Shown here in pieces: positions 1-32,648 of a stretch of DNA of 64,000 nucleotides. This stretch comes from Naegleria gruberi (lineage: Eukaryota), in assembly GCA_000004985.1 (NCBI GenBank), contig GG738854.1; one strand, 5' to 3'. Below the pieces are notes generated by a model. It was not told where the DNA came from and made no database searches. It saw nothing but the letters and a program-made list of their open reading frames with translations. The translations under genes were made by a program, and so were the position numbers. Within the stretch, counting starts at the first letter, position 1. Each line of letters begins with the position of its first letter.

Positions 1-245
1 ATATATTTTAGTGAAATTCAATATTTTCACTAAAATCATCATCACCGCCAGATTTATATGATAATTTGGAAAACTTTCAATCTAGTATTGTTCAGCATGG
101 TCGATTCCATCAGGTAAAATTACTTCCGAATATTTTCCTATTGGTTATCATGATGATAGGTTCATGTATATTTTCAACATGTACATATACCATATCTCAA
201 CATGTACTTCACCAACTTGAAAAATGTCTTTCATCACTACTATTC
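1..245. repeat. Left arm of a large inverted repeat (diverged; copy B equivalent about 12290-12813)
   Basis: Positions 30-245 are the reverse complement of 2510-2720, diverged to about 70-80% identity. The core ctcaacatgtacttcaccaacttg matches perfectly for 24 bp, and actaaaatcatcatcac matches for 17 bp. In copy B the inverted arm extends at least 500 bp (12290-12813 vs the reverse complement of 15073-15568). Confidence 0.7.
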
Positions 246-1476
246 AAATAGATAATAAACAATATATTTATTATCAGATTTTTATCATTTTGTGTTTTTG
301 CCAATTTCGGGTTATTCATGGTCACCAATCATGATCCATGCCAAAAGTACACAGCCAATCATCTTGAAACATTAATAAACTTTTATTAGTATTATTGTAG
401 GTGTACTATATAAATTATTTCGTCTTGTTTCGTTGAAATCATGAAGATTTGGATTTTTCTGTTTTTCATTAAATTTCACATCACCTACACCATATTTGTT
501 GATGTAAACTAGACTAGTTACATGTACATAATCAATGGTTGATTCTCTAATCATGTTTTAGTGTTGTTTTGTGTATTTAGGATTTTGAAATCTTGCGAAT
601 TATCCTGAGGTTATTCTTCATATAAATATGATTCCTCACTTCATGATATGAGGAGGGATTGATATCATGATTATTTGGAAGTGTTGTACAAATTTTGGAC
701 ACTATCTTAATTGAAATCAGGTAGAAAGAGTCCAATCTTTAACACCATATAAAATATGACTTGTGGCGATGGTTTTGACCTTGTTGTTCATACCTCCAAC
801 ATTGGAAAAGTAGAATGATAAACACCTTTTCTCATCATATTCAATATTTATGGAAGTTATGACCATAAGGATAAATTTCGCATGACCCAAGCATGCAGAT
901 TTTATTCGCCTAGATAAATTTCGCCTAAATTTTAGGCGAAATAAATCGCCTAGAACATAATCTCTTAAATAACCCAAATAAATCAACTCTGAATCCTAAC
1001 CAACCCCAAGCTCTCGCAGTATATGTTAGTAACTGCTACAAAAATTCATCATGGTACAATCGTCCCACTGACTCCTTCATCAAAAACAAAAAATACACTT
1101 CTGCTTACCAAAGGCAACAGCTGTCCCAACCACTTAGCCCGAACCAAACGTCCAAACACTGAACAGAACTAGATGGTTGAACAGCTAGTCTCTTATATCA
1201 TAACGAAGTAGATGTTGAAAAAGTTGGTTATCTTTGAAATTCAATTGATCTTAATGATGTTTAAGGAAATAAGGTTAATTGTTCGATTTAAGGTGAAAGA
1301 AATGAAATAAAAAGAAAAAACAAGAATTTTATTATTTTAATATCATTGTGTAATGTTCACAATGAGTTTGATAATTTTTGAATCACTCTTGAAGGAGTGA
1401 ATCATAAATAAAAGGTGTAAGTTTATTAATGTCTCTTGTATCAATAACGACCTGAGAGACCACACTTTTTCGGCAT

Positions 1477-2310
1477 TTAAGGACTCTGTGCAACATTTGA
1501 ATGATTTGGGTTAAGATTGAGTGCCGTTGAGTGAGTGTGCCTAAAGTAGGCGGATTGGAATTTTGAGTTTTTGATAAAAGGTTGTCGGGAGGGACGGTTG
1601 TACCACATAGTGTTTTTGTAACAATTTTCTAAATAAATGGCGAATGCCTTGTAAATTTCTAGAGCTACAGCCTTAGGAAGTCTTTTGTTCTTTGACCATA
1701 AGAGCCAGTCGCTGCGAGAGCAGCTTCCGTTAAAATCAATAATAAGGCAGTTCCTCACTTTGTCTGAAGGGAGACGAATCGGATCGAGGTTAAATTTGGA
1801 GGAAATATTGTCCCAAGTAGCATACAGTTCCTGTTTTTCATGGTTGCTTTTAGAGCACGATGAGAAAACGTGTGTCCAGTCTTCGGCAGTTTGACATGAA
1901 TCACAGGTTGTATTGTTATCTAGAATAATAGCGTGGTGAAGGTTTAGGAAAAGGAGTCTTTGTTGATAGTAGGAGAGATGGAAATTTCTCCAAAAGGAAA
2001 CAGTTGAAAGGTGCCAATTAAGATTTGAATCTAACTGGCCCAACTCTGAGATGGTTTTTTTGGATCTTTTGAGTTCAAGAATATCGTTTCGTAAGTTGGT
2101 GATGGGTTTGTGTGACGATCTGTCACAAAGAACCCATCCACTCTCTGTTGGATTGAAGTATGCATTGAGTTTGTTGATATTTAAGGCTGCATTTGTCCAG
2201 AGAGAGTCTGTAGATTTGCCTCGGAGAGCTTTTTGAATCGAGGCCCTTGCAATGTTGCGGGTGATTGTGGATGAGGAGTTCACAAATCTACAGACCGATG
2301 CTGTGCATTC
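1477..2310 (-). mobile_element. Degenerate non-LTR (LINE-like) retrotransposon 3' fragment, 5'-truncated
   Basis: The minus-strand ORF 1477-2541 contains C-D-S-C-x4-E-D-W-T-H-V-F-S-S-C-x13-W. This is the Cys/His pattern of the reverse-transcriptase zinc-binding (zf-RVT-like) tail found at the C-terminus of non-LTR ORF2 proteins. No intact RT motifs are recognisable upstream. The 5' end of the ORF runs into an 83-bp tandem duplication. Confidence 0.4.
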
Positions 2311-2314
2311 AATG

Positions 2315-2480
2315 TCTAACACATCTACAGGAGACGTGACTAGAAATCTCTCTCCAAGCCAAAACACAAAATAATGAAAAACTGATATTAAATATGGTCT
2401 AACACATCTACAGGAGACGTGGCTAGAAATCTCTCTCCAAGCCAAAACACAAAATAATGAAAAACTGATATTAAATATGG
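2315..2480. repeat. 83-bp direct tandem duplication (2 units); the same structure occurs at 14883-15048
   Basis: The unit tctaacacatctacaggagacgtgactagaaatctctctccaagccaaaacacaaaataatgaaaaactgatattaaatatggt is repeated twice head-to-tail with a single substitution (gtgactag/gtggctag). Confidence 0.85.
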
Positions 2481-2504
2481 TGTTTATTAGTGATTTAAAC
2501 AATA

Positions 2505-3000
2505 GTACTAGAAGAAAAGTATCCAAGTTGGTGAAGTACATGTTGAGTTATGGTCCATGTACTTTTTTGAAAATTCACATGTACCTATCCCTATCAAAAC
2601 TTGATGAAAATCCACCGTTCAAATTTACTATGCTACTATTGACCATTTCCAACAATCCTACATTAATAGTTTTCCAATCTTTCCAATGGATTCAACAGTG
2701 ATGATGATTTTAGTAAAATGTTGAGTTTCACCAAAATAAAGATATTTCCAAGACATAGAAATCACCCATACTATTCTACTATATTAAATATATCTATGAT
2801 GACGGTTGGTGAGTGTTCCGATGATGGTTTACCAACTTGAAAAATTATAATCCAAAAATTGATTTACTATTTTATGATGAAAGTCCAATAATAAAAATTA
2901 CTACTATTACTACTATTTAGATGATGTTGAGATGATGATGTGAAAGTTTGGCAGCTTACGGATGTGAAACCACTCGAAGAATCATCAAAGTACATCACGT
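2505..3000. repeat. Right arm of the inverted repeat (copy B equivalent 15073-15568)
   Basis: See the left-arm entry. The two arms flank a 2.27-kb core that holds the LINE fragment and the 83-bp duplication. The arm sequence belongs to a roughly 0.5-0.8 kb repeat family that recurs at 3290-3990. Confidence 0.7.
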
Positions 3001-3289
3001 ACTAGATATTGAAATATTTTTTCACATATTCTTAAATGAACAAACAAACCTTGCTTCAAATGGATGAATGACATGCTATGAGAAAAACAATAAAAACATG
3101 AAAATATCAGATATCCATGATTTTCACAAATTATGCTACAAGACTTGAAATTATACATTTAATAACATAATAAACATTATGAATTGTTGTTTTATTGTTG
3201 TTTGATTTGTAATTGGGCTATGAATCAACTCTGATAGCATCAAATATCGGAACTTGGTAAATTGACAACATGACGAAAATCTGATAATA

Positions 3290-3990
3290 AATATGATGTT
3301 TATTATCTGTTTAAATAGTAGTACTAAAAGACATGATTCAAGTTGGTGAAGTACATGTTGAGTTATAGTCCATGTACTTTTTCAAAATTCACATGTACCT
3401 AACCCTATCATAACTTGACCAAAATTGATAAGAGAAAATTCTCTTACCTACTATTGACCATTCCGAACAATACTACATTGACAGTTTTCCAACTTGTCCA
3501 GTAGATCCAGCAGTGATGATGAATTTAGTGAAAATTTTGACATTTCACCAAAATTACATTACTAAAAATTAATTTCCACAAATACTATTATTATATTGAT
3601 GGGAAACAATAATGATGATGGTTGGTGAATGATCCGATGATGGAACACCAAATTGTGATTTTCCATCATGAAAAATAACTTCCAATTTCATGATGATAAT
3701 CCACCAATAAAAATTACTATTATTACTACTATATAGATCATGTTGAGATGATGATGTGAAAGTTTGGTGGTTTTATGATGTAAAACCACTCCGAAAATCA
3801 TCATGTCCTCCTTGAGTAGATTTTATTTTTAGCCAACAAATTTTTTTTTGTGAAACCAAAGAAAAATCTTTACATAATTTTTCCAAATCATGATTAAATT
3901 CCAAAAGTTACTAGTAATACTATTATTTAAATCATGATGAGATGATGTGGTGAAATTCTTGGAGTTAATAGATGTGAAACTACTCAAAGA
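3290..3990. repeat. Additional direct, diverged copies of the arm repeat family
   Basis: Positions 3290-3560 are about 80% identical to 2480-2720 (gttggtgaagtacatgttgagttat..., ttgaccatt.c.aacaat.ctacatt.a.agttttccaa). Positions 3700-3800 and 3890-3990 repeat the tactattactactat...gatgatgtgaaagtttgg...gaaaccactc motif seen at 2900-2990. The inverted copy is at 12300-12400. Confidence 0.7.
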
Positions 3991-4520
3991 ATCAACAGTC
4001 GTGATGGACTGCTTGTTGCCAATATTTTTGAAATATTTTTGTTCCAGAAATTGAATTCCATTTAATGACTTCCAACATTGAATAAAGTAATATTTTGAAA
4101 CTAATTTTCTGATTATGTTATTGGAGTTGGTTAGTAGAGAGTTTTCTTAGTGTTTTCTGTAAAACACAATACCACGGTTTATGGTTATGATACATTACAG
4201 ATGGATAATATAGTTTATTTTTCAGTAACACTCTAACGTCGACACATTGGTCCCAACTTGTATTAATGTCCTGATAAGGTCATTTCTGGAATTTTGGAAC
4301 AAATAATTTTAAAACAGATATGTAAAATAAAGATTGTTTTGAAATAAAATGCAAAAATCGGTAATCCCTGACCTGTTGAACACATCAACCATTTGGCCAC
4401 ACGCTAAGCTGAAGGCTTCTTTTTGTATGCGTTACGTCTGTATTTGGCTAGCAAATAGATTTCGCACATATGTTTGTTGGAGTGGATAATAATTTGTTTT
4501 AAAATTATTATTGTAAAAAA

Positions 4521-6580
4521 ATGAACTTCGTTATAGTTATCCTTCTTTGCGTTTTTTTTGTAGTGCCAGTAAATACACAAACCCTGCTTTACAACATTAC
4601 CACTGTTGTTGGTGGGGGTAATGTTGGTGATGGTTTAGTTGCAACAAGTGCTAAATTATATTATCCTTCTGGAATTGCCATCAGTTCAAGTGATGAAACT
4701 TATATTGCTGATACAAACAATCATAGAATTCGTAAAATCACAACATCTGGTATAATTTCAACAATTGCTGGAAATGGAACAGCAGGATATAGTGGTGATG
4801 GTTCATCTGCAAAAAGTGCTCAATTATATTATCCTTCTGGAGTTGCCATCAGTTCAAGTGATGAAATTTATATTGTTGATAGAAGCAATAATAGAATTCG
4901 TAAAATCACAACATCTGGTATAATTTCAACAATTGCTGGAAATGGAACAGCAGGATATAGTGGTGATGGTCATCTGCAACAAGTGCTCAATTATATTTTC
5001 CTTCTGGAATTGCCATCAGTTCAAGTGATGAAATTTATATTGCTGATACAAACAATAATAGAATTCGTAAAATCACAACATCTGGTATAATTTCAACTAT
5101 TGCTGGAACTGGAGGGTATATGTTGGTGATGGTTTAGTTGCAACAAGTGCTAAATTATATTATCCTTCTGGAATTGCCATCAGTTCAAGTGATGAAACTT
5201 ATATTGCTGATACAAACAATCATAGAATTCGTAAAATCACAACATCTGGTATAATTTCAACAATTGCTGGAAATGGAACAGCAGGATATAGTGGTGATGG
5301 TTCATCTGCAAAAAGTGCTCAATTATATTATCCTTCTGGAGTTGCCATCAGTTCAAGTGATGAAATTTATATTGTTGATAGAAGCAATAATAGAATTCGT
5401 AAAATCACAACATCTGGTATAATTTCAACAATTGCTGGAAATGGAACAGCAGGATATAGTGGTGATGGTTCATCTGCAACAAGTGCTCAATTAAATTCTC
5501 CTTCTGGAATTGCCATCAGTTCAAGTGATGAAATTTATATTGCTGATATGTTCAATAATAGAATTCGTAAAATCACAACATCTGGTATTATTTCAACAAT
5601 TGCTGGAACTGGAACATCAGGATATAGTGGTGATGGTTCATCTGCAACAAGTATTCAATTATATTTTCCTTATGGAGTTGCAGTAAGTCTAAGTGATGAA
5701 ATTTATATTGCTGATATGTTCAATAATAGAATTCGTAAAATCACAACATCTGGTATCATTTCTACAATTGCTGGTGGTATAGGCGATGGACTATCAGCAA
5801 CTACAGCTTACATTAATGCCATTACGTTCGAATTTTCCTCAAGTGGTGAAATTTATATTGCTGATACAAACAATCATAGAATTCGTAAAATCACAACATC
5901 TGGTATAATTTCAACAATTGCCGGAACTGGAACATCAGGATATAGTGGTGATGGTTCATCTGCAACAAGTGCTCAATTAAATTCTCCTTATGGAATTGCT
6001 ATCAGTTCAAGTGGTGAAATTTATATTGCTGATACAAACAATAATAGAATTCGTAAAATCACAACATCTGGTATAATTTCAACAATTGCTGGAACTGGAA
6101 CACAAGGATATAGTGGTGATGGTTCATCTGCAACAAGTGCTCAATTATATAATCCTTATGGAGTTGCCATCAGTTCAAGAGGTGAAATTTATGTTGCTGA
6201 TTACAATAATAACAGAATTCGTAAAATCACAACATCTGGCATTATTTCAACAATTGCTGGAACTGGAACATCCGGCTATAGTGGTGATGGTTCATCTGCA
6301 ATAAGTGCTCAATTATATAATCCTTATGGAGTTGCCATCAGTTCAAGTGATGAAATTTATATTACTGATACAAACAATAACAGAATCAGAAAACTTAGTC
6401 CTTGGTGCACTGGAAATGCCATTCTTTTAGATGGATCTTGTGAGTATCCATGTTTTGGAACTACAAACAAAATTCCAGCTGTTGTATGCTCTGGAAAAGG
6501 TTCATGTATTGGCTATAATCAATGCAATTGCACAGCTGATTACTTTGGTTACAAATGTGATGAATTTTATTGCTATGAGT
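4521..6580 (+). CDS. 5' part of an NHL-repeat/EGF receptor-kinase paralog, frame-disrupted and ending in an N-gap
   Basis: It starts with a signal peptide, [21 protein letters not shown]. It then carries at least 11 tandem NHL-type repeats of about 56 aa (168 bp), of the form [53 protein letters not shown]. It ends in the first EGF-like repeat, CEYPCFG...CDEFYCYE, at the gap. The reading frame breaks at about 4975, where ggtgatggtcatctg replaces ggtgatggttcatctg (a 1-bp deletion). It breaks again at about 5110, where a roughly 0.5-kb internal tandem duplication (5117-5500 copying 4610-4990) joins. The last 460 bp are nearly identical to 18720-19190. Confidence 0.55.
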
Positions 6581-6648
6581 NNNNNNNNNNNNNNNNNNNN
6601 NNNNNNNNNNNNNNNNNNNNNNNNNNNNNNNNNNNNNNNNNNNNNNNN

Positions 6649-7128
6649 AACCCAAACCCAAACCCAAACCCAAACCCAAACCTTAACCCAAACCCAAACC
6701 CAAACCCAAACCCAAACCCAAACCCAAACCCAAACCCAAACCCAAACCCAAACCCAAACCCAAACCCAAACCCAAACCCAAACCCAAACCCAAACCCAAA
6801 CCCAAACCCAAACCCAAACCCAAACCCAAACCCAAACCCAAACCCAAACCCAAACCCAAACCCAAACCCAAACCCAAACCCAAACCCAAACCCAAACCCT
6901 AAACCCAAACCCAAACCCAAACCCAAACCCAAACCCAAACCCAAACCCAAACCCAAACCCAAACCCAAACCCAAACCCAAACCCAAACCCAAACCCAAAC
7001 CCAAACCCAAACCCAAACCCAAACCCAAACCCAAACCCAAACCCAAACCCAAACCCAAACCCAAACCCAAACCCAAACCCAAACCCAAACCCAAACCCAA
7101 ACCCAAACCCAAACACAAACCCACACAC
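6649..7128. repeat. Telomeric repeat tract (CCCAAA)n, i.e. (TTTGGG)n on the G-strand
   Basis: About 78 perfect 6-bp units of aaccca/cccaaa, with a few variants (ccttaaccc, ccctaaaccc) and the distal end cccaaacacaaacccacacac. It is preceded by the 68-N gap (6581-6648). Confidence 0.9.
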
Positions 7129-10100
7129 TATTGATACCATTGTGTTCACAATTGAAAATCTAGTCGATTGATATTAGTTTCATCAATTGGTAATATTAAT
7201 ATGGTCAATTAGGGTATCTCAAAGTCAATTTTGAAAAACTAAGAGTAGCTATATAAAATGTCTAATAAATCATAATTATATATCAAAACTGATATCAAAA
7301 TGCTTCAAATTACATATATAACATGATAGAATTGAAATAAATATCATATCTCATATTAAATATTGAGATAGTCAATTAAGGTACCTCAATATGGAAGTAC
7401 CCTAAGGATAATGAGATTCATTACCAAATTGATACAATATGTTATTAACATCATATAATGATGTTCCTATCAATTTCATATCATTTGGACATCATTCAAC
7501 ATTCATGTCATTCAACCATGTCAGCAACTACTCATGGCAATATGAAAAGTCAATATCAAGAGTTGCAACAAGATAGAGTATCATACCACTACTCTTATAA
7601 TTGATATTGATAACGTTTCTGAGTGATAGAAATCAATATCTATATAATTGGAATATCTGCCAAGCTACTGTCCTAATTGATCAAAGGTATCATTCTTACA
7701 TGTCAATAATGGTAAGAATCAATACCAATTCAATATTATCATGTTATAATCATCATATACTCTCNNNNNNNNNNNNNNNNNNNNNNNNNNNNNNNNNNNN
7801 NNNNNNNNNNNNNNNNNNNNNNNNNNNNNNNNNNNNNNNNNNNNNNNNNNNNNNNNNNNNNNNNNNNNNNNNNNNNNNNNNNNNNNNNNNNNNNNNNNNN
7901 NNNNNNNNNNNNNNNNNNNNNNNNNNNNNNNNNNNNNNNNNNNNNNNNNNNNNNNNNNNNNNNNNNNNNNNNNNNNNNNNNNNNNNNNNNNNNNNNNNNN
8001 NNNNNNNNNNNNNNNNNNNNNNNNNNNNNNNNNNNNNNNNNNNNNNNNNNNNNNNNNNNNNNNNNNNNNNNNNNNNNNNNNNNNNNNNNNNNNNNNNNNN
8101 NNNNNNNNNNNNNNNNNNNNNNNNNNNNNNNNNNNNNNNNNNNNNNNNNNNNNNNNNNNNNNNNNNNNNNNNNNNNNNNNNNNNNNNNNNNNNNNNNNNN
8201 NNNNNNNNNNNNNNNNNNNNNNNNNNNNNNNNNNNNNNNNNNNNNNNNNNNNNNNNNNNNNNNNNNNNNNNNNNNNNNNNNNNNNNNNNNNNNNNNNNNN
8301 NNNNNNNNNNNNNNNNNNNNNNNNNNNNNNNNNNNNNNNNNNNNNNNNNNNNNNNNNNNNNNNNNNNNNNNNNNNNNNNNNNNNNNNNNNNNNNNNNNNN
8401 NNNNNNNNNNNNNNNNNNNNNNNNNNNNNNNNNNNNNNNNNNNNNNNNNNNNNNNNNNNNNNNNNNNNNNNNNNNNNNNNNNNNNNNNNNNNNNNNNNNN
8501 NNNNNNNNNNNNNNNNNNNNNNNNNNNNNNNNNNNNNNNNNNNNNNNNNNNNNNNNNNNNNNNNNNNNNNNNNNNNNNNNNNNNNNNNNNNNNNNNNNNN
8601 NNNNNNNNNNNNNNNNNNNNNNNNNNNNNNNNNNNNNNNNNNNNNNNNNNNNNNNNNNNNNNNNNNNNNNNNNNNNNNNNNNNNNNNNNNNNNNNNNNNN
8701 NNNNNNNNNNNNNNNNNNNNNNNNNNNNNNNNNNNNNNNNNNNNNNNNNNNNNNNNNNNNNNNNNNNNNNNNNNNNNNNNNNNNNNNNNNNNNNNNNNNN
8801 NNNNNNNNNNNNNNNNNNNNNNNNNNNNNNNNNNNNNNNNNNNNNNNNNNNNNNNNNNNNNNNNNNNNNNNNNNNNNNNNNNNNNNNNNNNNNNNNNNNN
8901 NNNNNNNNNNNNNNNNNNNNNNNNNNNNNNNNNNNNNNNNNNNNNNNNNNNNNNNNNNNNNNNNNNNNNNNNNNNNNNNNNNNNNNNNNNNNNNNNNNNN
9001 NNNNNNNNNNNNNNNNNNNNNNNNNNNNNNNNNNNNNNNNNNNNNNNNNNNNNNNNNNNNNNNNNNNNNNNNNNNNNNNNNNNNNNNNNNNNNNNNNNNN
9101 NNNNNNNNNNNNNNNNNNNNNNNNNNNNNNNNNNNNNNNNNNNNNNNNNNNNNNNNNNNNNNNNNNNNNNNNNNNNNNNNNNNNNNNNNNNNNNNNNNNN
9201 NNNNNNNNNNNNNNNNNNNNNNNNNNNNNNNNNNNNNNNNNNNNNNNNNNNNNNNNNNNNNNNNNNNNNNNNNNNNNNNNNNNNNNNNNNNNNNNNNNNN
9301 NNNNNNNNNNNNNNNNNNNNNNNNNNNNNNNNNNNNNNNNNNNNNNNNNNNNNNNNNNNNNNNNNNNNNNNNNNNNNNNNNNNNNNNNNNNNNNNNNNNN
9401 NNNNNNNNNNNNNNNNNNNNNNNNNNNNNNNNNNNNNNNNNNNNNNNNNNNNNNNNNNNNNNNNNNNNNNNNNNNNNNNNNNNNNNNNNNNNNNNNNNNN
9501 NNNNNNNNNNNNNNNNNNNNNNNNNNNNNNNNNNNNNNNNNNNNNNNNNNNNNNNNNNNNNNNNNNNNNNNNNNNNNNNNNNNNNNNNNNNNNNNNNNNN
9601 NNNNNNNNNNNNNNNNNNNNNNNNNNNNNNNNNNNNNNNNNNNNNNNNNNNNNNNNNNNNNNNNNNNNNNNNNNNNNNNNNNNNNNNNNNNNNNNNNNNN
9701 NNNNNNNNNNNNNNNNNNNNNNNNNNNNNNNNNNNNNNNNNNNNNNNNNNNNNNNNNNNNNNNNNNNNNNNNNNNNNNNNNNNNNNNNNNNNNNNNNNNN
9801 NNNNNNNNNNNNNNNNNNNNNNNNNNNNNNNNNNNNNNNNNNNNNNNNNNNNNNNNNNNNNNNNNNNNNNNNNNNNNNNNNNNNNNNNNNNNNNNNNNNN
9901 NNNNNNNNNNNNNNNNNNNNNNNNNNNNNNNNNNNNNNNNNNNNNNNNNNNNNNNNNNNNNNNNNNNNNNNNNNNNNNNNNNNNNNNNNNNNNNNNNNNN
10001 NNNNNNNNNNNNNNNNNNNNNNNNNNNNNNNNNNNNNNNNNNNNNNNNNNNNNNNNNNNNNNNNNNNNNNNNNNNNNNNNNNNNNNNNNNNNNNNNNNNN

Positions 10101-11217
10101 NNNNNNNNNNNNNNNNNNNNNNNNNNNNNNNNNNNNNNNNNNNNNNNNNNNNNNNNNNNNNNNNNNNNNNNNNNNNNNNNNNNNNNNNNNNNNNNNNNNN
10201 NNNNNNNNNNNNNNNNNNNNNNNNNNNNNNNNNNNNNNNNNNNNNNNNNNNNNNNNNNNNNNNNNNNNNNNNNNNNNNNNNNNNNNNNNNNNNNNNNNNN
10301 NNNNNNNNNNNNNNNNNNNNNNNNNNNNNNNNNNNNNNNNNNNNNNNNNNNNNNNNNNNNNNNNNNNNNNNNNNNNNNNNNNNNNNNNNNNNNNNNNNNN
10401 NNNNNNNNNNNNNNNNNNNNNNNNNNNNNNNNNNNNNNNNNNNNNNNNNNNNNNNNNNNNNNNNNNNNNNNNNNNNNNNNNNNNNNNNNNNNNNNNNNNN
10501 NNNNNNNNNNNNNNNNNNNNNNNNNNNNNNNNNNNNNNNNNNNNNNNNNNNNNNNNNNNNNNNNNNNNNNNNNNNNNNNNNNNNNNNNNNNNNNNNNNNN
10601 NNNNNNNNNNNNNNNNNNNNNNNNNNNNNNNNNNNNNNNNNNNNNNNNNNNNNNNNNNNNNNNNNNNNNNNNNNNNNNNNNNNNNNNNNNNNNNNNNNNN
10701 NNNNNNNNNNNNNNNNNNNNNNNNNNNNNNNNNNNNNNNNNNNNNNNNNNNNNNNNNNNNNNNNNNNNNNNNNNNNNNNNNNNNNNNNNNNNNNNNNNNN
10801 NNNNNNNNNNNNNNNNNNNNNNNNNNNNNNNNNNNNNNNNNNNNNNNNNNNNNNNNNNNNNNNNNNNNNNNNNNNNNNNNNNNNNNNNNNNNNNNNNNNN
10901 NNNNNNNNNNNNNNNNNNNNNNNNNNNNNNNNNNNNNNNNNNNNNNNNNNNNNNNNNNNNNNNNNNNNNNNNNNNNNNNNNNNNNNNNNNNNNNNNNNNN
11001 NNNNNNNNNNNNNNNNNNNNNNNNNNNNNNNNNNNNNNNNNNNNNNNNNNNNNNNNNNNNNNNNNNNNNNNNNNNNNNNNNNNNNNNNNNNNNNNNNNNN
11101 NNNNNNNNNNNNNNNNNNNNNNNNNNNNNNNNNNNNNNNNNNNNNNNNNNNNNNNNNNNNNNNNNNNNNNNNNNNNNNNNNNNNNNNNNNNNNNNNNNNN
11201 NNNNNNNNNNNNNNNNN

Positions 11218-12010
11218 ATGGTCTTTGATTAAATTTAAAAATAGACTGCCGTTAATTACTGGAATATTAATATTCAAAGCTTGTTGATCAAGCTATTGAT
11301 TGAAATCAAACCGATTATTGAATATTGATCATTGAATTGGTGAATAATCACTCTTGATAATGCTAGATATTTCATATTGCATGCAAATCAACCTGATTCA
11401 ATCTACAAAGGTTGGTAGTTGCACCACTTCGTGGCGAAACTACCATTCCACGATGAATCAACAAAGAATCACTTCCATTCAACTCAATTTGACCGTTATA
11501 ATCAATAAATCAATGAAATGTTCCTTTATTAGCAATACCTGTTCAATCTAATGAGTATATTCACGTCCCAAACATTTGACTTCTCAAAGTCCATAATACA
11601 AAAGTTAGTTCTGACCTGACCTTTATAAATCTATCAATATAAGAAATGAAACCATCAAATTTACATCATTAATAGATTATAAGAAATATAATCAATGATA
11701 TAAATCTTCATTAAGTAATCTCTTAAATAACCCAAATAAATCAACTCTGAATCCTAACCAAACCCCCCAGTTTCCAGATCACAAAAGTCAAGATACTATA
11801 TATGGTCTTTGATTAAATTTAAAAATAGACTGCCGTTAATTACTGGAATATTAATTCAAAGCTTGTTGATCAAGGTATTGATTCAAATCAAACCGATTAT
11901 TGAATATTGATCATTGAATTGGTGAATAATCACTATCTTGATAATGTTACTTATTCATATTGCATGCAAATCAACCTGATTCAATCTACAAAGGTTGGTA
12001 GTTGCGAAAC
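11218..12010. repeat. Tandem repeat of about 585 bp (1.35 copies; second copy carries internal deletions)
   Basis: atggtctttgattaaatttaaaaatagactgccgttaattactggaatattaat...ggtgaataatcact...gcatgcaaatcaacctgattcaatctacaaaggttggtagttgc... begins both at 11218 and at 11803. Copy 1 contains the hairpin tggtagttgcaccacttcgtggcgaaactacca. The motif atctcttaaataacccaaataaatcaactctgaatcctaacca at 11720-11762 also occurs at 956-1000 and 13524-13568. Confidence 0.8.
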
Positions 12011-12568
12011 TACCCATCCACGATCAATCAACATTAGATTCACTGACCGGACCTTTAAATATCTATCAATATAAGAAATGAAACCATCAAATTTACATCA
12101 TTTATAGATGATAAGAATTATAATCAATGATATCAATCTTCACTAAGTAATCTGTTATAGGCGAAAAAAAACTGCCTGACAAACCATGCAAAAAAAACTG
12201 TTCGCATAATTAAGCTATGCGAAAAATATCTTTGGACATACCGATCCTTAGTTATAATCAATCAACAAGAACTTGGAAAAATAGTTCAAAAATATTGACA
12301 ACAAGTAAGTCCATCACGACTCTGTTGATTCTTGGAGTAGTTTCACATCTATTAATTTTAAGAATTTCACCACATCATCTCATCATCATTTAAATAGTAG
12401 TATTAATAGTAATTTTTGGAATTTAATTGTTCATCATGATTTGGAAATAATTTTATTATTTGGAAAAATTCAAGTTGGTACATCATCATCGGAACAACTA
12501 CCAACCATCATCATTGTTATTTACCATCATTATAATAGTAATATTTGTGGAAATAAATCTGATAATAA

Positions 12569-15500
12569 TAATATTTTAGTGAAATTCAATATTTTCACTA
12601 AAATCATCATCACCGCCAGATTTATATGATAATTTGGAAAACTTTCAATCTAGTATTGTTCAGCATGGTCGATTCCATCAGGTAAAATTACTTCCGAATA
12701 TTTTCCTATTGGTTATCATGATGATAGGTTCATGTATATTTTCAACATGTACATATACCATATCTCAACATGTACTTCACCAACTTGAAAAATGTCTTTC
12801 ATCACTACTATTCAAATAGATAATAAACAATATATTTATTATCAGATTTTTATCATTTTGTGTTTTTGCCAATTTCGGGTTATTCATGGTCACCAATCAT
12901 GATCCATGCCAAAAGTACACAGCCAATCATCTTGAAACATTAATAAACTTTTATTAGTATTATTGTAGGTGTACTATATAAATTATTTCGTCTTGTTTCG
13001 TTGAAATCATGAAGATTTGGATTTTTCTGTTTTTCATTAAATTTCACATCACCTACACCATATTTGTTGATGTAAACTAGACTAGTTACATGTACATAAT
13101 CAATGGTTGATTCTCTAATCATGTTTTAGTGTTGTTTTGTGTATTTAGGATTTTGAAATCTTGCGAATTATCCTGAGGTTATTCTTCATATAAATATGAT
13201 TCCTCACTTCATGATATGAGGAGGGATTGATATCATGATTATTTGGAAGTGTTGTACAAATTTTGGACACTATCTTAATTGAAATCAGGTAGAAAGAGTC
13301 CAATCTTTAACACCATATAAAATATGACTTGTGGCGATGGTTTTGACCTTGTTGTTCATACCTCCAACATTGGAAAAGTAGAATGATAAACACCTTTTCT
13401 CATCATATTCAATATTTATGGAAGTTATGACCATAAGGATAAATTTCGCATGACCCAAGCATGCAGATTTTATTCGCCTAGATAAATTTCGCCTAAATTT
13501 TAGGCGAAATAAATCGCCTAGAACATAATCTCTTAAATAACCCAAATAAATCAACTCTGAATCCTAACCAACCCCAAGCTCTCGCAGTATATGTTAGTAA
13601 CTGCTACAAAAATTCATCATGGTACAATCGTCCCACTGACTCCTTCATCAAAAACAAAAAATACACTTCTGCTTACCAAAGGCAACAGCTGTCCCAACCA
13701 CTTAGCCCGAACCAAACGTCCAAACACTGAACAGAACTAGATGGTTGAACAGCTAGTCTCTTATATCATAACGAAGTAGATGTTGAAAAAGTTGGTTATC
13801 TTTGAAATTCAATTGATCTTAATGATGTTTAAGGAAATAAGGTTAATTGTTCGATTTAAGGTGAAAGAAATGAAATAAAAAGAAAAAACAAGAATTTTAT
13901 TATTTTAATATCATTGTGTAATGTTCACAATGAGTTTGATAATTTTTGAATCACTCTTGAAGGAGTGAATCATAAATAAAAGGTGTAAGTTTATTAATGT
14001 CTCTTGTATCAATAACGACCTGAGAGACCACACTTTTTCGGCATTTAAGGACTCTGTGCAACATTTGAATGATTTGGGTTAAGATTGAGTGCCGTTGAGT
14101 GAGTGTGCCTAAAGTAGGCGGATTGGAATTTTGAGTTTTTGATAAAAGGTTGTCGGGAGGGACGGTTGTACCACATAGTGTTTTTGTAACAATTTTCTAA
14201 ATAAATGGCGAATGCCTTGTAAATTTCTAGAGCTACAGCCTTAGGAAGTCTTTTGTTCTTTGACCATAAGAGCCAGTCGCTGCGAGAGCAGCTTCCGTTA
14301 AAATCAATAATAAGGCAGTTCCTCACTTTGTCTGAAGGGAGACGAATCGGATCGAGGTTAAATTTGGAGGAAATATTGTCCCAAGTAGCATACAGTTCCT
14401 GTTTTTCATGGTTGCTTTTAGAGCACGATGAGAAAACGTGTGTCCAGTCTTCGGCAGTTTGACATGAATCACAGGTTGTATTGTTATCTAGAATAATAGC
14501 GTGGTGAAGGTTTAGGAAAAGGAGTCTTTGTTGATAGTAGGAGAGATGGAAATTTCTCCAAAAGGAAACAGTTGAAAGGTGCCAATTAAGATTTGAATCT
14601 AACTGGCCCAACTCTGAGATGGTTTTTTTGGATCTTTTGAGTTCAAGAATATCGTTTCGTAAGTTGGTGATGGGTTTGTGTGACGATCTGTCACAAAGAA
14701 CCCATCCACTCTCTGTTGGATTGAAGTATGCATTGAGTTTGTTGATATTTAAGGCTGCATTTGTCCAGAGAGAGTCTGTAGATTTGCCTCGGAGAGCTTT
14801 TTGAATCGAGGCCCTTGCAATGTTGCGGGTGATTGTGGATGAGGAGTTCACAAATCTACAGACCGATGCTGTGCATTCAATGTCTAACACATCTACAGGA
14901 GACGTGACTAGAAATCTCTCTCCAAGCCAAAACACAAAATAATGAAAAACTGATATTAAATATGGTCTAACACATCTACAGGAGACGTGGCTAGAAATCT
15001 CTCTCCAAGCCAAAACACAAAATAATGAAAAACTGATATTAAATATGGTGTTTATTAGTGATTTAAACAATAGTACTAGAAGAAAAGTATCCAAGTTGGT
15101 GAAGTACATGTTGAGTTATGGTCCATGTACTTTTTTGAAAATTCACATGTACCTATCCCTATCAAAACTTGATGAAAATCCACCGTTCAAATTTACTATG
15201 CTACTATTGACCATTTCCAACAATCCTACATTAATAGTTTTCCAATCTTTCCAATGGATTCAACAGTGATGATGATTTTAGTAAAATGTTGAGTTTCACC
15301 AAAATAAAGATATTTCCAAGACATAGAAATCACCCATACTATTCTACTATATTAAATATATCTATGATGACGGTTGGTGAGTGTTCCGATGATGGTTTAC
15401 CAACTTGAAAAATTATAATCCAAAAATTGATTTACTATTTTATGATGAAAGTCCAATAATAAAAATTACTACTATTACTACTATTTAGATGATGTTGAGA

Positions 15501-15624
15501 TGATGATGTGAAAGTTTGGCAGCTTACGGATGTGAAACCACTCGAAGAATCATCAAAGTACATCACGTACTAGATGTTGAAATATTTTTTCACATATTCT
15601 TAACTGAACAAACAAACCTTGCTT
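12569..15624. repeat. Segmental duplication copy B (same block as 1-3056)
   Basis: Same ORF set as 1-3056 shifted by 12568 (66/12634, 1477/14045, 2477/15045). The sequence runs upstream into the left inverted arm at 12290-12568. Confidence 0.85.
14045..14878 (-). mobile_element. Second copy of the LINE-like 3' fragment, inside duplication copy B
   Basis: Identical 354-aa minus-strand ORF (14045-15109) with the same zf-RVT-like motif. Confidence 0.4.
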
Positions 15625-15991
15625 CAAAAAATCAACCAAACTCTCGTAATACCTTGCTTGGTTTTCGTTCCAACAATTCAAGCCAAACAACACAAGAGAA
15701 TCTATTTAATATAATTGGAAAATTCAATTGTATAAATGTATCATTCAATTTATCGGTGTTACTAAGGTTGTGCATTTTCCATTTTGGTTTACCGTCATCA
15801 GTATTAAGCGGATGCTCTTCTCCCGTCTTTAGTAAGAAACTGAGTGTTCTCCGTCTCATCCGTCCCCCGTTTCACCGTCACTTAGTACCATCTCTACAGG
15901 ATTTCTTGTAGCTCCTTTTTCAACAGAAAAAAAGAATTATTTAATAAGTTGTGCTCATTGTTGTAAGAATCATTCCTCATCTGAAACAATA

Positions 15992-16206
15992 ATGACATTG
16001 AAAAAAGTATATGGAAGCTTTAATCAAACTAAGGATATCGAAAAAACACAACAGTATTGTTTTGAATGTCAAATTGAAGCAGTGGGAGATTATGAAAAGA
16101 TATCTGAAAGCGGGATTGCAGAAGACTGGGCCATCCTCTCATTTGAAAACTATATGGAGTATGGTTCTCCAAACTATTTAATACCATCCCCATCTCAGGT
16201 ATAAAG
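15992..16206 (+). other. Possible 5' gene fragment running into the N-gap (unresolved)
   Basis: The ORF MTLKKVYGSFNQTKDIEKTQQYCFECQIEAV...SPNYLIPSPSQV is open to the gap at 16207. It has no identifiable domain and lies in the unique sequence distal to duplication copy B. Confidence 0.2.
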
Positions 16207-17601
16207 NNNNNNNNNNNNNNNNNNNNNNNNNNNNNNNNNNNNNNNNNNNNNNNNNNNNNNNNNNNNNNNNNNNNNNNNNNNNNNNNNNNNNNNNNNNNNN
16301 NNNNNNNNNNNNNNNNNNNNNNNNNNNNNNNNNNNNNNNNNNNNNNNNNNNNNNNNNNNNNNNNNNNNNNNNNNNNNNNNNNNNNNNNNNNNNNNNNNNN
16401 NNNNNNNNNNNNNNNNNNNNNNNNNNNNNNNNNNNNNNNNNNNNNNNNNNNNNNNNNNNNNNNNNNNNNNNNNNNNNNNNNNNNNNNNNNNNNNNNNNNN
16501 NNNNNNNNNNNNNNNNNNNNNNNNNNNNNNNNNNNNNNNNNNNNNNNNNNNNNNNNNNNNNNNNNNNNNNNNNNNNNNNNNNNNNNNNNNNNNNNNNNNN
16601 NNNNNNNNNNNNNNNNNNNNNNNNNNNNNNNNNNNNNNNNNNNNNNNNNNNNNNNNNNNNNNNNNNNNNNNNNNNNNNNNNNNNNNNNNNNNNNNNNNNN
16701 NNNNNNNNNNNNNNNNNNNNNNNNNNNNNNNNNNNNNNNNNNNNNNNNNNNNNNNNNNNNNNNNNNNNNNNNNNNNNNNNNNNNNNNNNNNNNNNNNNNN
16801 NNNNNNNNNNNNNNNNNNNNNNNNNNNNNNNNNNNNNNNNNNNNNNNNNNNNNNNNNNNNNNNNNNNNNNNNNNNNNNNNNNNNNNNNNNNNNNNNNNNN
16901 NNNNNNNNNNNNNNNNNNNNNNNNNNNNNNNNNNNNNNNNNNNNNNNNNNNNNNNNNNNNNNNNNNNNNNNNNNNNNNNNNNNNNNNNNNNNNNNNNNNN
17001 NNNNNNNNNNNNNNNNNNNNNNNNNNNNNNNNNNNNNNNNNNNNNNNNNNNNNNNNNNNNNNNNNNNNNNNNNNNNNNNNNNNNNNNNNNNNNNNNNNNN
17101 NNNNNNNNNNNNNNNNNNNNNNNNNNNNNNNNNNNNNNNNNNNNNNNNNNNNNNNNNNNNNNNNNNNNNNNNNNNNNNNNNNNNNNNNNNNNNNNNNNNN
17201 NNNNNNNNNNNNNNNNNNNNNNNNNNNNNNNNNNNNNNNNNNNNNNNNNNNNNNNNNNNNNNNNNNNNNNNNNNNNNNNNNNNNNNNNNNNNNNNNNNNN
17301 NNNNNNNNNNNNNNNNNNNNNNNNNNNNNNNNNNNNNNNNNNNNNNNNNNNNNNNNNNNNNNNNNNNNNNNNNNNNNNNNNNNNNNNNNNNNNNNNNNNN
17401 NNNNNNNNNNNNNNNNNNNNNNNNNNNNNNNNNNNNNNNNNNNNNNNNNNNNNNNNNNNNNNNNNNNNNNNNNNNNNNNNNNNNNNNNNNNNNNNNNNNN
17501 NNNNNNNNNNNNNNNNNNNNNNNNNNNNNNNNNNNNNNNNNNNNNNNNNNNNNNNNNNNNNNNNNNNNNNNNNNNNNNNNNNNNNNNNNNNNNNNNNNNN
17601 N

Positions 17602-18074
17602 AACCCAAACCCAAACCCAAACCCAAGGGCAAACCCAAACCCAAACCCAAACCCAAAGCCAAACCCAAACCCAAACCCAAACCCAAACCCAAACCCAAAC
17701 CCAAACCCAAACCCAAACCCAAACCCAAACCCAAACCCAAACCCAAACCCAAACCCAAACCCAAACCCAAACCCAAACCCAAACCCAAACCCAAACCCAA
17801 ACCCAAACCCAAACCCAAACCCAAACCCAAACCCAACCCAAACCCAAACCCAAACCCAAACCCAAACCCAAACCCAAACCCAAACCCAAACCCAAACCCA
17901 AACCCAAACCCAAACCCAACCCAAACCCAAACCCAAACCCAAACCCAAACCCAAACCCAAACCCAAACCCAAACCCAAACCCAAACCCAAACCCAAACCC
18001 AAACCCAAACCCAAACCCAAACCCAAACCCAAACCCAAACCCAAACCCAACCCACCCAAACCCAACCCAAACCC
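17602..18074. repeat. Telomeric repeat tract (CCCAAA)n joined directly to coding sequence
   Basis: About 78 units of CCCAAA with sparse variants (cccaagggc, cccaaagcc, cccaaccca). It is preceded by the N-gap 16207-17601 and is followed immediately at 18075 by in-frame NHL-repeat coding sequence (t caa tta tat aat cct tat gga gtt gcc...). Confidence 0.9.
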
Positions 18075-21000
18075 TCAATTATATAATCCTTATGGAGTTG
18101 CCATCAGTTCAAGTGATGAAATTTATATTGCTGATACAAACAATCATAGAATTCGTAAAATCACAACATCTGGTATTATTTCAACAATTGCTGGAACTGG
18201 AACAGCAGGATATAATGGTGATGGTTCATCTGCAACAAGTGCTAAATTATATTTTCCTTATGGAGTTGCCATCAGTTCAAGTGATGAAATTTATATTGCT
18301 GATATGGATATGTTCAATAATAGAATTCGTAAAATCACAACATCTGGTATTATTTCAACAATTGCTGGCGGTATAGGCGATGGACTATCAGCAACTACAG
18401 CTTACATTAATGCCATTACGTTCGAATTTTCCTCAAGTGGTGAAATTTATATTGCTGATACAAACAATCATAGAATTCGTAAAATCACAACATCTGGTAT
18501 CATTTTAACAATTGCTGGAACTGGAACACAAGGATATAGTGGTGATGGTTCATCTGCAACAAGTGCTCAATTAAATTCTCCTTATGGAGTTGCCATCAGT
18601 TCAAGAGGTGAAATTTATATTGCTGATACAAACAATAACAGAATTCGTAAAATCACAACATCTGGCATTATTTCAACAATTGCTGGAACTGGAACATCAC
18701 GGCTATAGTGGTGATGGTTCATCTGCAACAAGTGCTCAATTATATAATCCTTATGGAGTTGCCATCAGTTCAAGTGATGAAATTTATGTTGCTGATTACA
18801 ATAATAACAGAATTCGTAAAATCACAACATCTGGCATTATTTCAACAATTGCTGGAACTGGAACATCCGGCTATAGTGGTGATGGTTCATCTGCAATAAG
18901 TGCTCAATTATATAATCCTTATGGAGTTGCCATCAGTTCAAGTGATGAAATTTATATTACTGATACAAACAATAACAGAATCAGAAAACTTAGTCCTTGG
19001 TGCACTGGAAATGCCATTCTTTTAGATGGATCTTGTGAGTATCCATGTTTTGGAACTACAAACAAAATTCCAGCTGTTGTATGCTCTGGAAAAGGTTCAT
19101 GTATTGGCTATAATCAATGCAATTGCACAGCTGATTACTTTGGTTACAAATGTGATGAATTTTATTGCTATGAGTTGTTGAGAAATCACTCTGGTGTTTG
19201 TTCATCCCAAGGTATTTGTACTTCTCCCAATGAGTGCTCTTGTTCATCCGGTTATTATGGGGAAAATTGCCAATACTTTTATTGCCACTCTATTCCGTTC
19301 AACTCTTCTACAGTATGTTCGTCAGTAGGAACTTGTATTGGATTGAATAATTGCTCGTGTAATCCAGGATATTCAGGGTCGTATTGCCAAGACTTTACTT
19401 GTTATGGTGTTAGTTCTAAAAACACTACCGTATGTTCTTCTCATGGCACGTGTACATCTCTAAATAATTGCTCTTGCGTTACTGGTTATTATGGAAATAA
19501 TTGCGAGAATTTTGAATGTTTCGATATTCTTTTCACTAATTCTACAGTTTGTTCTAGCAGAGGAAAATGTTTCTCTCCTAACAATTGTACATGTGATTCT
19601 GGATATTATGGATCTAATTGTGAAATGTATGATTGTTATGGATTGTCCAAAAACAGTTCTAATGTATGTTCAGGGCATGGAAGTTGTACTTCATTCAATA
19701 ATTGTACATGTAGAGATGGTTACTTTGATTCTAAATGTGAGTCATTTAATTGTGCCGGAGAGAAATTCACTGGTCAAAGTCTTTGTCAAAATAATGGAAC
19801 TTGTTCTGGCCCTGGAAATTGTGTTTGTCCATATAAGTTTGGAGGAGCAAGATGTGAATATTTTAAATGTTTTTCAGTGACAGCCAACGAACCAAAAGTA
19901 TGCGGAGGACATGGTACATGTCTCAACTATAACAATTGTTCTTGCTCAGAAAAGTGGTTTGGAGAAGATTGTTCAGTTACTAATTGTTTTAATATAACAT
20001 CAAATTCTAGTTCTGTATGTGGTGCTAGAGGAAATTGTAGTGATTATGACAGGTGTACTTGTAATAATGGTTATATTGGTAGAGAATGTGAACATATTGT
20101 TTGTTATGACAGGATTGAAAGTGATAGAATGGTTTGCTCTGGAAATGGTAAATGTATATCACCAAATAATTGTACATGTGAAAGTGGTTTTGTTGGAAAT
20201 GAATGTCAATATCATGAAATTTATTTGAACACATCATCTGCAATGATATTTTCTTTCCATGATAGTCTAATGAAAATGTTGCCAAATGGCAGTGAAATAT
20301 TTTCATGTAATGATATTTTTGAAGAATCTGAACTAATGAAATTTGGCGAAAATTCTATTTTATGTCAATGGAGAAAGAAATCAATGCAAATTTATCTTGG
20401 TTTTGATTACACAATTCAACATTACTCGGTTATTCAAACCAAATTTAATTTTTCAATGATTGTGAACAGTTTAACCAATAATGATGTTTCTTCTTCCAGT
20501 TGTACATTTGGATACTCATTAACAGAAGCATCACCAATGTTAGATTTAGTAATACGTTTGAATTGTGATGATACTTTACATGGATTCACGAAAATGACAA
20601 GTAGATGGATATGTAGTCAATGTAGTGGCGTTATTTCATCATTGTTAAACAAATATTCCAATAGAACATTTATTCATATTCCAATTTCATATACAAACAG
20701 TTTAAACCCTATTCAAGGATATAAGATTATTAATTTACAAGCTCTTTATTCATCTGGAGTGACTAGTGAAAAATCAATAAGTAAGGAAGTGAAGATACAA
20801 ACCTATACAAAATCATTACCCCCTAGTTATTACTGGTTAAGTGATAATTTTGACGGAAAGGCATATTCCTGTATTGGTCATAATTGTATTTTAGAAACTT
20901 CATTGAATAGTTTAAATTCTTCAATTTCATATTCATTTTCTGGCTTTTTCAGTTTATTGAATACTGATTTATATTCCAAACAAATGGTTAGAATGATTAA

Positions 21001-24000: not shown

Positions 24001-24348
24001 ATTTATGGTAAGTTTTTTGTACATTTAACATTTTATTCATTTGAAAAGTCCCCTGAGCTTGGTTTGGGTGGAAAGTACTATTACAACACTGATATTTATA
24101 GTTTAGGAGTTACAATCTATCAAATCATGACAAAAGATACCTTTACATCCATAAGTCAATTATACCTAGGTAAAGACCAAACAGATGTAACCAAATTATT
24201 GTATAAAAAGTTACAAGAAAGTGGTCAATATTCTTCAAAACTTGTAGAATTGGTAGTATTAATGTTAACCAAAGATAACTTGATTAGACCACAAGCTCAA
24301 GATATTTTGGAGGATTATTATTTTGATGATTTGAAAAAGAAACAATAA
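18075..24348 (+). CDS. Receptor-type Ser/Thr protein kinase: NHL repeats + about 13 tenascin-type EGF repeats + transmembrane segment + kinase. N-terminally truncated by the telomere; 2 exons
   Basis: Exon 1 is 18076-24007 and exon 2 is 24049-24348. The intron at 24008-24048 starts gtaagt, ends aaaag, and is 41 bp. Splicing joins GTPIFM to [21 protein letters not shown], which is the APE region of the kinase. Kinase motifs present are [21 protein letters not shown] and DFGLAK. The EGF repeats follow CxGxSxxxxVCSxxGxCxxxNxCxCxxGYxGxxCExF. The transmembrane segment is [32 protein letters not shown] 1-bp insertion at about 18697 (acatcacggctatag vs acatccggctatag in the other copies) shifts the frame between NHL repeats. 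This may be a sequencing error or a true disruption. Confidence 0.8.
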
Positions 24349-30904: not shown

Positions 30905-32648
30905 TTATTGCTTGAAAATCTTATAATCAAAGCAAGGGAAATGGAAATAATCCTCCTTTACACCCAATTCATAATTACACATCAACTCTATTAATCCATC
31001 AAGAACGATACAAGATCCAGATATGCCTTCAAACAATGAGAATGGATGGTCAGGCACAGAAACTAGTTTGGATTGATTTTCACATCCGTATTGAGCAAAT
31101 CTGATGGCCCTCATTAAACATTCATCATCTCCTGTAGTTTGGTACATTAAGATGAAAGGATAGAGGTTTCCAAATATACCATGGCACAACCCTAGACCTT
31201 TCTTCAAGAGACCAAATTTCCACATACAAGCCCCAGCTTTCTTTGCAGAGTCCAAATACTTTTCATCCTTTGTAATTTTGTACATGTCCAAAAGAATTGG
31301 CATTACTCCCGTCACACCATGACAGAATTGAAGAAGTCTCGATGATTTGCTTCCAACACTAGAAGGGAAATTGCCATCACTGAATTGTTCTGAAACTAAC
31401 CAATCCACAGTTTCTTTAATCTTTTTGAAACTACTTTCATCATTCTTGATATCTGTAAGATCCAATAAGAGTTTGGCAATGCCACAAAAACCATGAACAG
31501 CTCCTAGATATTCCTTTTCATGCCATTCCCACATGTACTTGTTTCCCTTATCTCCATCCTGTTTGATAATATCAACAACCTTATCAAATTGCATAACTTC
31601 CAAATAATTGTCTGGTAAAACCTTAGAATCCTTAAAGTATCTCTGCAAAAATAGGACAGTGTACAAATATCCTATACGGCCATAAAGCCACTCATTGGAA
31701 ATTGGTTTGTTTGCCCTCCTATTGATAAAGCAAAGCTTTGGAAAATGAATAGCAATATTATGGAGTGTAATTTTGGCCTTTTCAGTCTTTCCTAGAATAT
31801 CATAGGCAATTGATAATAGAGAAAACAATCCCATCATACCACCAACACCACTTATATCACCATTATCGAGTGAGAGTGATTGCTTTTCCATGATGAGCTC
31901 AATTAAATGTACACATTTTTCAATTTTCTCTGAGAGATACTCCATCGATGCAATTGGAATGAATGATAAATCTTCTGCATTCGGAAGTGCTGTATCCACA
32001 AAGTTAGAATCAGACATGGTAGATGAGCATTGTGAATCTCTTCTTCTACTCATGGCATCCTCAGAAGGAAGTGGCGAATCAGTGCTCTTTGGACTCGATT
32101 TTACAAAAAAGTAAATTAACATGTACAAGACACCTCCAATGCCATCATAGATTGTGAAATCATCAATGGTTAGTTTTTTACAAGTTCCAAATACTTGAAT
32201 ATCCTTCTTGACGAGTGTGAGAGGTTCCTCAATTTGTGTTTTGATAATAATTTCAATCCATGATCGTAAACTTGATCGGAAAGTTCCCTTCAGAGAGGCT
32301 ATTATTTGTAACATGACAACCTTGGTAGATACATTTTGTTCTTTTGCTTCCTTTTTCAATGAATAGTTGATGCAATGGATTTAAATCACATCTCTCCAAT
32401 AAATTCTGACAATCTGCCAAGTTAGTATAACCACCATGATTTGTATGTGGTGAAGATGATGAAGTATGACTTGTTGTTGATGAAGTGAAGGATCCCATCT
32501 TTTGCAAGTGAGGATGCGGAGGAAGATTATTTAATAATCCACCACTACTCTGTGAATGATGTGAAGTAGATGAAGATTGAAGAGGTGGTGGAGAATGAGA
32601 GCGTTGCTGTTTCATTGTGTTGTTAATTTTTTTTTTTAAATTATTCAT
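30905..32648 (-). CDS. LanC-like (LANCL) protein; probable upstream His/Ser-rich exon
   Basis: ORF 30905-32359 shows repeated LanC GxxG / CHG motifs: DGIGGVLYML, VHGFCGIAKLL, QFCHGVTGVMPILL, LCHGIFGNLY. The upstream minus-strand ORF 32253-32648 is S/T/H-rich and reads MNNLKKK...SHSPPPLQSSSTSHH. It overlaps in another frame, which suggests a short intron near 32360-32400. The exact junction is not resolved. Confidence 0.65.

Follow-up and report, generated by a model that had tools for sequence, protein, structure and literature searches.

The window analyzed here is a 64,000-nucleotide stretch (GG738854.1) of the Sanger draft of Naegleria gruberi NEG-M. It contains a block of about 3 kb that occurs twice with almost no differences between the copies. 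We tentatively interpret the block as a low-copy duplicon that may be shared between chromosome ends and whose copies would stem from recent ectopic recombination or break-induced replication. We give this reading a probability of about 0.45. The window falls into four contigs, called A to D from left to right, and the two copies of the block lie in contigs A and C. Coordinates of all features are given in Table 1.

Identity and edges of the block

The best self-BLAST alignment of the block paired positions 3-3060 with positions 12571-15628. It contained 3,058 bp with 2 mismatches and 0 gaps, and the identity was 99.93%. An earlier reading made from the letters alone (the sequence-only reading) had proposed a near-identical block present twice, and the alignment bears this out. 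A match of this extent far exceeds chance, and the repeat is real. The sequence-only reading had aligned 1-3056 with 12569-15624, where there are 4 mismatches (at 1, 2, 3008, and 3036). Its right end at 3056/15624 was too short, and identity runs on to 3060/15628. Both mismatches in the best alignment (3008 and 3036) are at most 55 bp from this right edge (P ~3e-4 if placed at random). They sit 25 and 53 bp from the right junction, and the remaining 3,005 bp contain zero differences. No further copy of the block was found in the other 48 kb of the window.

The left "edge" of the block coincides with window bases 1-3. A dispersed repeat, R3, crosses the left edge of copy 2 and continues to 12226. 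In copy 1 the same repeat breaks off at position 369 of the 706-position model. Because R3 is cut in contig A yet continues in contig C, the block is at least 3,058 bp long, and 3.06 kb is a lower bound. It would be a striking coincidence for a repeat edge to lie at most 2 bp from an arbitrarily chosen window start, so it is simpler to suppose that contig A starts there.

The right flanks of the two copies are unrelated. No BLAST similarity was found between the 1,460 bp at 3061-4520 (A-middle) and the 578 bp at 15629-16206 (C-right). The flanks had been described as diverging cleanly. This holds for the right side, but the left side is cut by the start of the sequence, and divergence is seen on the right only. 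C-right had no homologue and no domain. It contains a 70-aa open reading frame (ORF) ending at GT that we considered as a first exon. We rejected it as a gene, as it had no homologue at all. Contig C has its own left flank of 1.35 kb, which includes a tandem repeat with a unit of ~584 bp. This repeat (11218-12157) begins at the first base after the 3,453-N gap, and its units are 92 to 100% alike. The second unit carries a deletion of ~150 bp. This array, possibly a subtelomeric satellite, probably extends into the gap.

Assembly layout

In the published N. gruberi draft (784 scaffolds, 1,977 contigs), the contig N50 is 160 kb and repeats make up 5.1% (PMC6125883). The species has also been assembled from nanopore data with Flye (PMC12695648). 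A LanC-like ORF in the window (30908-32314, minus strand) is 100% identical to XP_002680282.1 (NAEGRDRAFT_64365) of N. gruberi, which is encoded on a scaffold of 665,159 bp. The window contains 4,916 N, split over three runs that separate the four contigs. Between the two copies of the block there are 3,521 N and a telomere-type array. Downstream of copy 2 there is one more N gap and then a second array. The copies had been placed 12.5 kb apart on one molecule. They are in separate small contigs, with N gaps and an array in terminal orientation between them, and the 12.5-kb distance is a scaffolding estimate without sequence behind it.

Telomere-type arrays

The candidate telomere repeat of N. 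gruberi is TTTGGG (PMC3622300). The arrays in the window are (AACCCA)n, which is the C-strand of TTTGGG, and they match the published motif. The 79 units of the array in contig B and the 80 in contig D match the unit at 96 to 98%. Both arrays run with the C-rich strand 5' to 3' and have unique DNA on their right, which is the orientation of a left chromosome end. No G-strand array or other telomere motif was found in the window. Given this orientation, sequence on the left of an array cannot be in cis with it, provided that the arrays are true ends. In that case it is impossible for contigs A, B, and C all to lie beyond the telomere of contig D on one molecule.

Every link from a copy of the block to an array crosses an N gap. 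The label "subtelomeric" given to the block earlier is thus based on scaffolding links across gaps, without continuous sequence. Literature searches for descriptions of Naegleria telomeres or subtelomeres yielded the motif report only (PMC3622300), and none on subtelomere architecture in Heterolobosea surfaced.

The arrays contain variant units (AACCTT, AACCCTA, AGGGCA, AAGCCA, and the 5-mer ACCCA). Degenerate units are concentrated at the inner junction, a pattern also found at genuine telomere-proximal ends. Contig B contains 640 bp of unique AT-rich sequence (7124-7764) directly behind its own array, with no match elsewhere in the window. Contig B is presumably a different chromosome end that was pulled into the scaffold.

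Contig A and the receptor gene

Contig A links contigs C and D. Its left end is identical to contig C up to the contig start. Its right end (5486-6580) aligns with 18074-19175 of contig D with 45 differences, all of them left of 6183. The last 398 bp, which run to the contig end (6183-6580), match 18778-19175 at 100%. The identity of the block is therefore matched by another repeat in the window, contrary to the sequence-only reading. Two sequences leave the block on its right (A-middle and C-right), and two enter contig D on its left (the NHL array of contig A and the telomere array).

The shared sequence belongs to an NHL/EGF receptor gene. Contig A holds the 5' part of this gene, with the start codon and a signal peptide at 4521. 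In contig D the telomere array is joined directly (CCC|TCAATTA, 18074/18075) to sequence inside the same NHL array. The gene in contig D, which encodes NHL, EGF, transmembrane, and kinase regions, continues to the kinase domain at 24028. As judged from the sequence at this junction, the chromosome seems to have been truncated here and healed by the de novo addition of a telomere.

The distance from the end of the block to the point of NHL homology is 2,425 bp in contig A. The corresponding distance from copy 2 is 2,445 bp and is made up of contig C sequence, the 1,395-N gap, and the telomere array. The offset between the copies of the block is 12,568, and the offset of the A/D homology is 12,588 to 12,595. 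Contig C is therefore placed relative to contig D almost exactly where contig A belongs (within ~20 bp). We infer that contig C was positioned by the clone mates of block reads, which follow the geometry of contig A, and that contig A was then pushed aside.

In the truncated copy in contig D, a 1-bp indel near 18697 causes a frameshift. In contig A the NHL array (4521-6386) contains ~10.6 units of 168 bp, with two frame changes (near 4985 and 5150), and it repeats its own first ~490 bp. The frame breaks in contig A may mean that the gene is a true pseudogene, or that the tandem array was collapsed and its consensus contains errors.

Contents of the block

The block consists of old repeat fragments that form a mosaic. 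It is non-coding and non-functional debris and is not a mobile element. The sequence-only reading had noted that both copies carry the same fragment of a long interspersed nuclear element (LINE), the same inverted arms, and the same 83-bp duplication. All three are present in both copies, and homologues of the LINE fragment carry RVT_1.

The LINE fragment (2340 to 1483) encodes the last ~285 residues of the P0001 family, with 76% identity to P0001 aa 165-450 by tblastn. It lies in a 354-aa ORF. This ORF matched only N. gruberi predicted proteins (at 62% and 54%) and one unnamed sequence. A scan of all 1.8 billion representatives yielded longer relatives, P0119 and P0120, in which the reverse transcriptase domain RVT_1 is immediately N-terminal of the matched part, and more distant relatives have Exo_endo_phos plus RVT_1. 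No Pfam domain was found in the ORFs of the block, the 354-aa ORF included, or in those of the flanks. The block does not contain an ORF for a reverse transcriptase, endonuclease, or transposase. The protein matches support a 5'-truncated tail without an enzyme domain, which covers only the region after the reverse transcriptase. The tail makes up 0.86 kb (28%) of the 3.06-kb block. Its termini do not coincide with the boundaries of the block, and the right boundary lies beyond the unrelated R repeat.

A second, shorter LINE scrap (1007-1150) is 98% identical to the C terminus (aa 233-280) of P0003, which is N. gruberi XP_002676788.1. A 50-bp piece ending in telomere-like CCTAACCAA(A)CCCC recurs with 98% identity at 958-1007, 11716-11766, and 13526-13575. 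Within the block this piece adjoins the start of the short scrap, which hints at LINE tails stacking at such sites.

The inverted arms are diverged copies of a dispersed repeat of ~600 to 700 bp, named R here. The arms are 73% identical (4-298 against 2738-2444). The tail of R1, the right arm, ends ~20 to 60 bp before the right boundary of the block. Two further copies, R2 and R4 (3189-4041), are outside the block, in the unique central part of contig A and upstream of the receptor gene. The copies of R are 72 to 80% alike and are confined to the first 16 kb of the window. A SINE (short interspersed nuclear element) or RNA origin of R was checked. No Rfam family matched at E<=0.1 in 1-20 kb, and no tRNA was found in the window.

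The unit of the 83-bp tandem duplication contains LINE coding sequence and the start of R. The duplication spans the LINE/R junction and so arose after that junction had formed. The block contains several repeat types in both orientations, and LINE sequence of the tail occupies only 1483-2340. It follows that the block moved as a segment and not by transposition.

Origin of the block

Under the favored explanation, the block would occur at chromosome ends of NEG-M on two or more separate DNA molecules. It would have been copied as a segment by a recent end-to-end exchange, through break-induced replication or gene conversion. Such an exchange would leave the copies near-identical up to the breakpoint at 3060/15628. 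The tandem layout would have been made by the scaffolder, which may have hung contigs A, B, and C outside the telomere of contig D by clone-mate links. These contigs would be either repeat rich or specific to one version of this chromosome end. From the arrangement of the gene, the untruncated form of this chromosome end is most likely preserved in contig A, and contig D would be the truncated form with a healed telomere. If contig A and the telomere-bearing contig D are two versions of one end in a diploid, the junction of the block with C-right needs another locus. The options in the sequence-only reading were a recent duplication or gene conversion between chromosome ends, and a serial assembly of two alleles. 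These options still agree with the data, but that reading's picture of a single molecule is unsupported.

Several points weigh against a duplicon shared between ends. The arrays could be interstitial, as N gaps precede them and a terminal position is thus not provable. The start of the scaffold at window base 1 is probable but is deduced rather than shown. Copy 2 is distinct only by its 578-bp flank and the two mismatches 25 and 53 bp from the junction, and one chimeric or low-quality read could yield both the flank and the mismatches. The zero differences over 3,005 bp may come from a consensus of pooled reads, which would hide true divergence.

The same slot in the scaffold is open to two other accounts. 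Contigs A and C may be homologues of one locus, with a structural variant just right of the block, both of which were kept in series. The copies are near-identical, contig C fills the slot of contig A relative to contig D to ~20 bp, and the small contigs are located at the scaffold end. The genus Naegleria is described as mainly heterozygous diploid, and heterozygosity was reported for N. gruberi too (PMC9928731). Against this, the right flanks have no similarity over 578 bp versus 1,460 bp. The full gene in contig A and the truncation in contig D are already two versions, and the block with C-right is a third, which is too many for two haplotypes. Contig A starts at the window start, so the comparison of flanks covers the right side only. 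We consider allelic redundancy rather unlikely. It is less likely still that there is a single real block upstream of the receptor gene and that C-right came from a chimeric clone or a low-quality read, with the consensus duplicated. C-right is just 578 bp long (about one Sanger read), ends in a gap, and has no homologue. The two differences fall where the poor tail of a contig-end read would fall, and contigs C and A occupy the same scaffold slot. However, contig C has its own 1.35-kb left flank with the tandem repeat. Overlap assemblers use each read once, normally merge single-copy reads, and leave a chimeric read as a short spur. From this behavior we infer that they would rarely duplicate 3 kb of single-copy consensus.

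Two further accounts fare worse. The scaffold order could be right, with the block present twice ~12.5 kb apart on one chromosome and the (AACCCA)n arrays interstitial. The deposited scaffold has this order, and interstitial telomere repeats occur in many eukaryotes. This is very improbable, as both arrays begin exactly at contig starts after N gaps and in terminal orientation. The units are also not colinear (block, NHL, and telomere versus block, telomere, and NHL), and the array in contig D breaks into coding repeats, the intact 5' part of which lies in contig A. If the block were a mobile element that had been active recently (a LINE, or a composite with the inverted R arms at its ends), this would account for the very high identity and the sharp right boundary. 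This boundary lies ~20 to 60 bp beyond the tail of R1, and the interior is flanked by the inverted arms. An active element is hardly credible, and we rejected it. The block does not encode a reverse transcriptase, endonuclease, or transposase, and its LINE tail is 5' truncated and makes up 28% of its length. The arms are only 72 to 80% alike, and the other 48 kb of the window contain no more copies.

A shared duplicon remains our preferred reading. A fuller version of it, which we hold to be doubtful, is that this chromosome end is in flux. In one homologue, the terminal ~18 kb or more would have been lost and the break healed by de novo addition of (TTTGGG)n inside the NHL/EGF receptor-kinase gene. 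In the other, the gene would be complete, with R repeats and the block in front of it, and the block would have been copied very recently to another end. If this is true, the window would offer active end exchange and telomere healing in a heterolobosean and a first sequence-level view of such an end in Naegleria. The block itself has no detectable function. On its content, it may at most provide homology for further exchange between ends.

Other features of the window

Two long ORFs lie in contig D, away from the block. One (24456-27026, minus strand) encodes 856 aa with a protein kinase domain and ten DUF4116 repeats. The other (52931-63403, plus strand) is uninterrupted and encodes 3,490 aa with dozens of repeats of ~100 residues and a distinct C-terminal region.

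Table 1. Positions of contigs, gaps, repeats, and flanks in the 64,000-nucleotide window
Feature	Positions	Strand	Remarks
Contig A	1-6580		6.6 kb
N gap	6581-6648		68 bp; between contigs A and B
Contig B	6649-7764		1.1 kb
N gap	7765-11217		3,453 bp; between contigs B and C
Contig C	11218-16206		5.0 kb
N gap	16207-17601		1,395 bp; between contigs C and D, after block copy 2
Contig D	17602-64000		At least 46 kb
Block copy 1	3-3060		Contig A; left end cut by window/contig start
Block copy 2	12571-15628		Contig C
Right flank of copy 1 (A-middle)	3061-4520		Unrelated to right flank of copy 2
Right flank of copy 2 (C-right)	15629-16206		578 bp, about one Sanger read; contig then ends in gap
Left flank of copy 2	11218-12225		~1.6 units of ~584-bp tandem repeat
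5'-truncated non-long-terminal-repeat retrotransposon (LINE) ORF tail	1483-2340	-	Inside 354-aa ORF 1477-2541; twin at 14051-14908
Second short LINE ORF scrap	1007-1150	+	Opposite to LINE tail; twin at 13575-13718
83-bp tandem duplication, 2 units	2314-2481		Spans junction of truncated LINE ORF and R1; twin at 14882-15049
R1, right inverted arm	2395-3074	+	Twin at 14963-15629
R2	3189-3899	+	Contig A, outside block
R3, left inverted arm	4-371	-	Cut by window start; nhmmer model positions 2-369
R3, full copy in contig C	12226-12939	-	nhmmer model positions 2-706; crosses left edge of copy 2
R4, partial	3893-4041	+	Contig A, outside block
Right end of contig A	5486-6580	+	Homologous to 18074-19175 of contig D
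(AACCCA)79 array	6649-7123	+	Starts contig B at first base after gap
(AACCCA)~80 array	17602-18074	+	Starts contig D; fused directly to middle of NHL-repeat coding array

Significance and comparison with known systems

The first ~17.6 kb of the window are unfit to be taken as a true linear map. Claims of a tandem duplication, an interstitial telomere, or gene order in this part rest on scaffolding through gaps. If the preferred reading is true, the block is one example of segment sharing between chromosome ends in N. gruberi, with an adjoining gene truncation that was likely healed by a telomere. It is not a new type of element or mechanism. It is an ordinary duplicon of repeat debris or an assembly redundancy at a poorly resolved scaffold end. 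The truncation beside it, which was probably healed by a telomere, is the more interesting of the two features.

The block resembles subtelomeric duplicons such as the Y' and X elements of yeast, the subtelomeric blocks of humans, and the telomere-associated repeat regions of Plasmodium. It is several kilobases long and near-identical between copies, and it consists of repeat debris. In the scaffold it has telomere arrays nearby, and it shows a discrete breakpoint and differing proximal flanks. The expected origin of such duplicons is ectopic recombination or break-induced replication, as proposed here. Unlike them, the block is seen in two copies only, its linkage to telomeres passes through N gaps, and its location at different ends is deduced. 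It also differs from yeast Y' in that it does not contain a helicase or other gene.

Haplotig artifacts in heterozygous drafts also produce short contigs whose ends are identical to their neighbors and which are lined up, with N gaps between them, at the end of a scaffold. Contigs A and C likewise compete for one slot. In such artifacts the right flanks would be allelic, whereas here they are unrelated, and there are three types of junction instead of the two expected in a diploid.

The LINE piece resembles 5'-truncated LINE insertions. It is a 3' ORF tail that is cut on its 5' side, and its relatives have RVT_1 and, distantly, an AP endonuclease domain. The block as a whole is unlike such an insertion, as the LINE covers 0.86 of 3.06 kb, the boundaries of the block are not LINE termini, and the second scrap is in the opposite orientation.

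Telomere-healed truncations are known from Plasmodium, yeast, and ciliates. This comparison concerns the neighboring junction at 18074 and not the block, and the A and D versions may be alleles or paralogues. The junction resembles these truncations in that the array of contig D is fused inside a coding repeat array, the intact 5' part of which is found in contig A.

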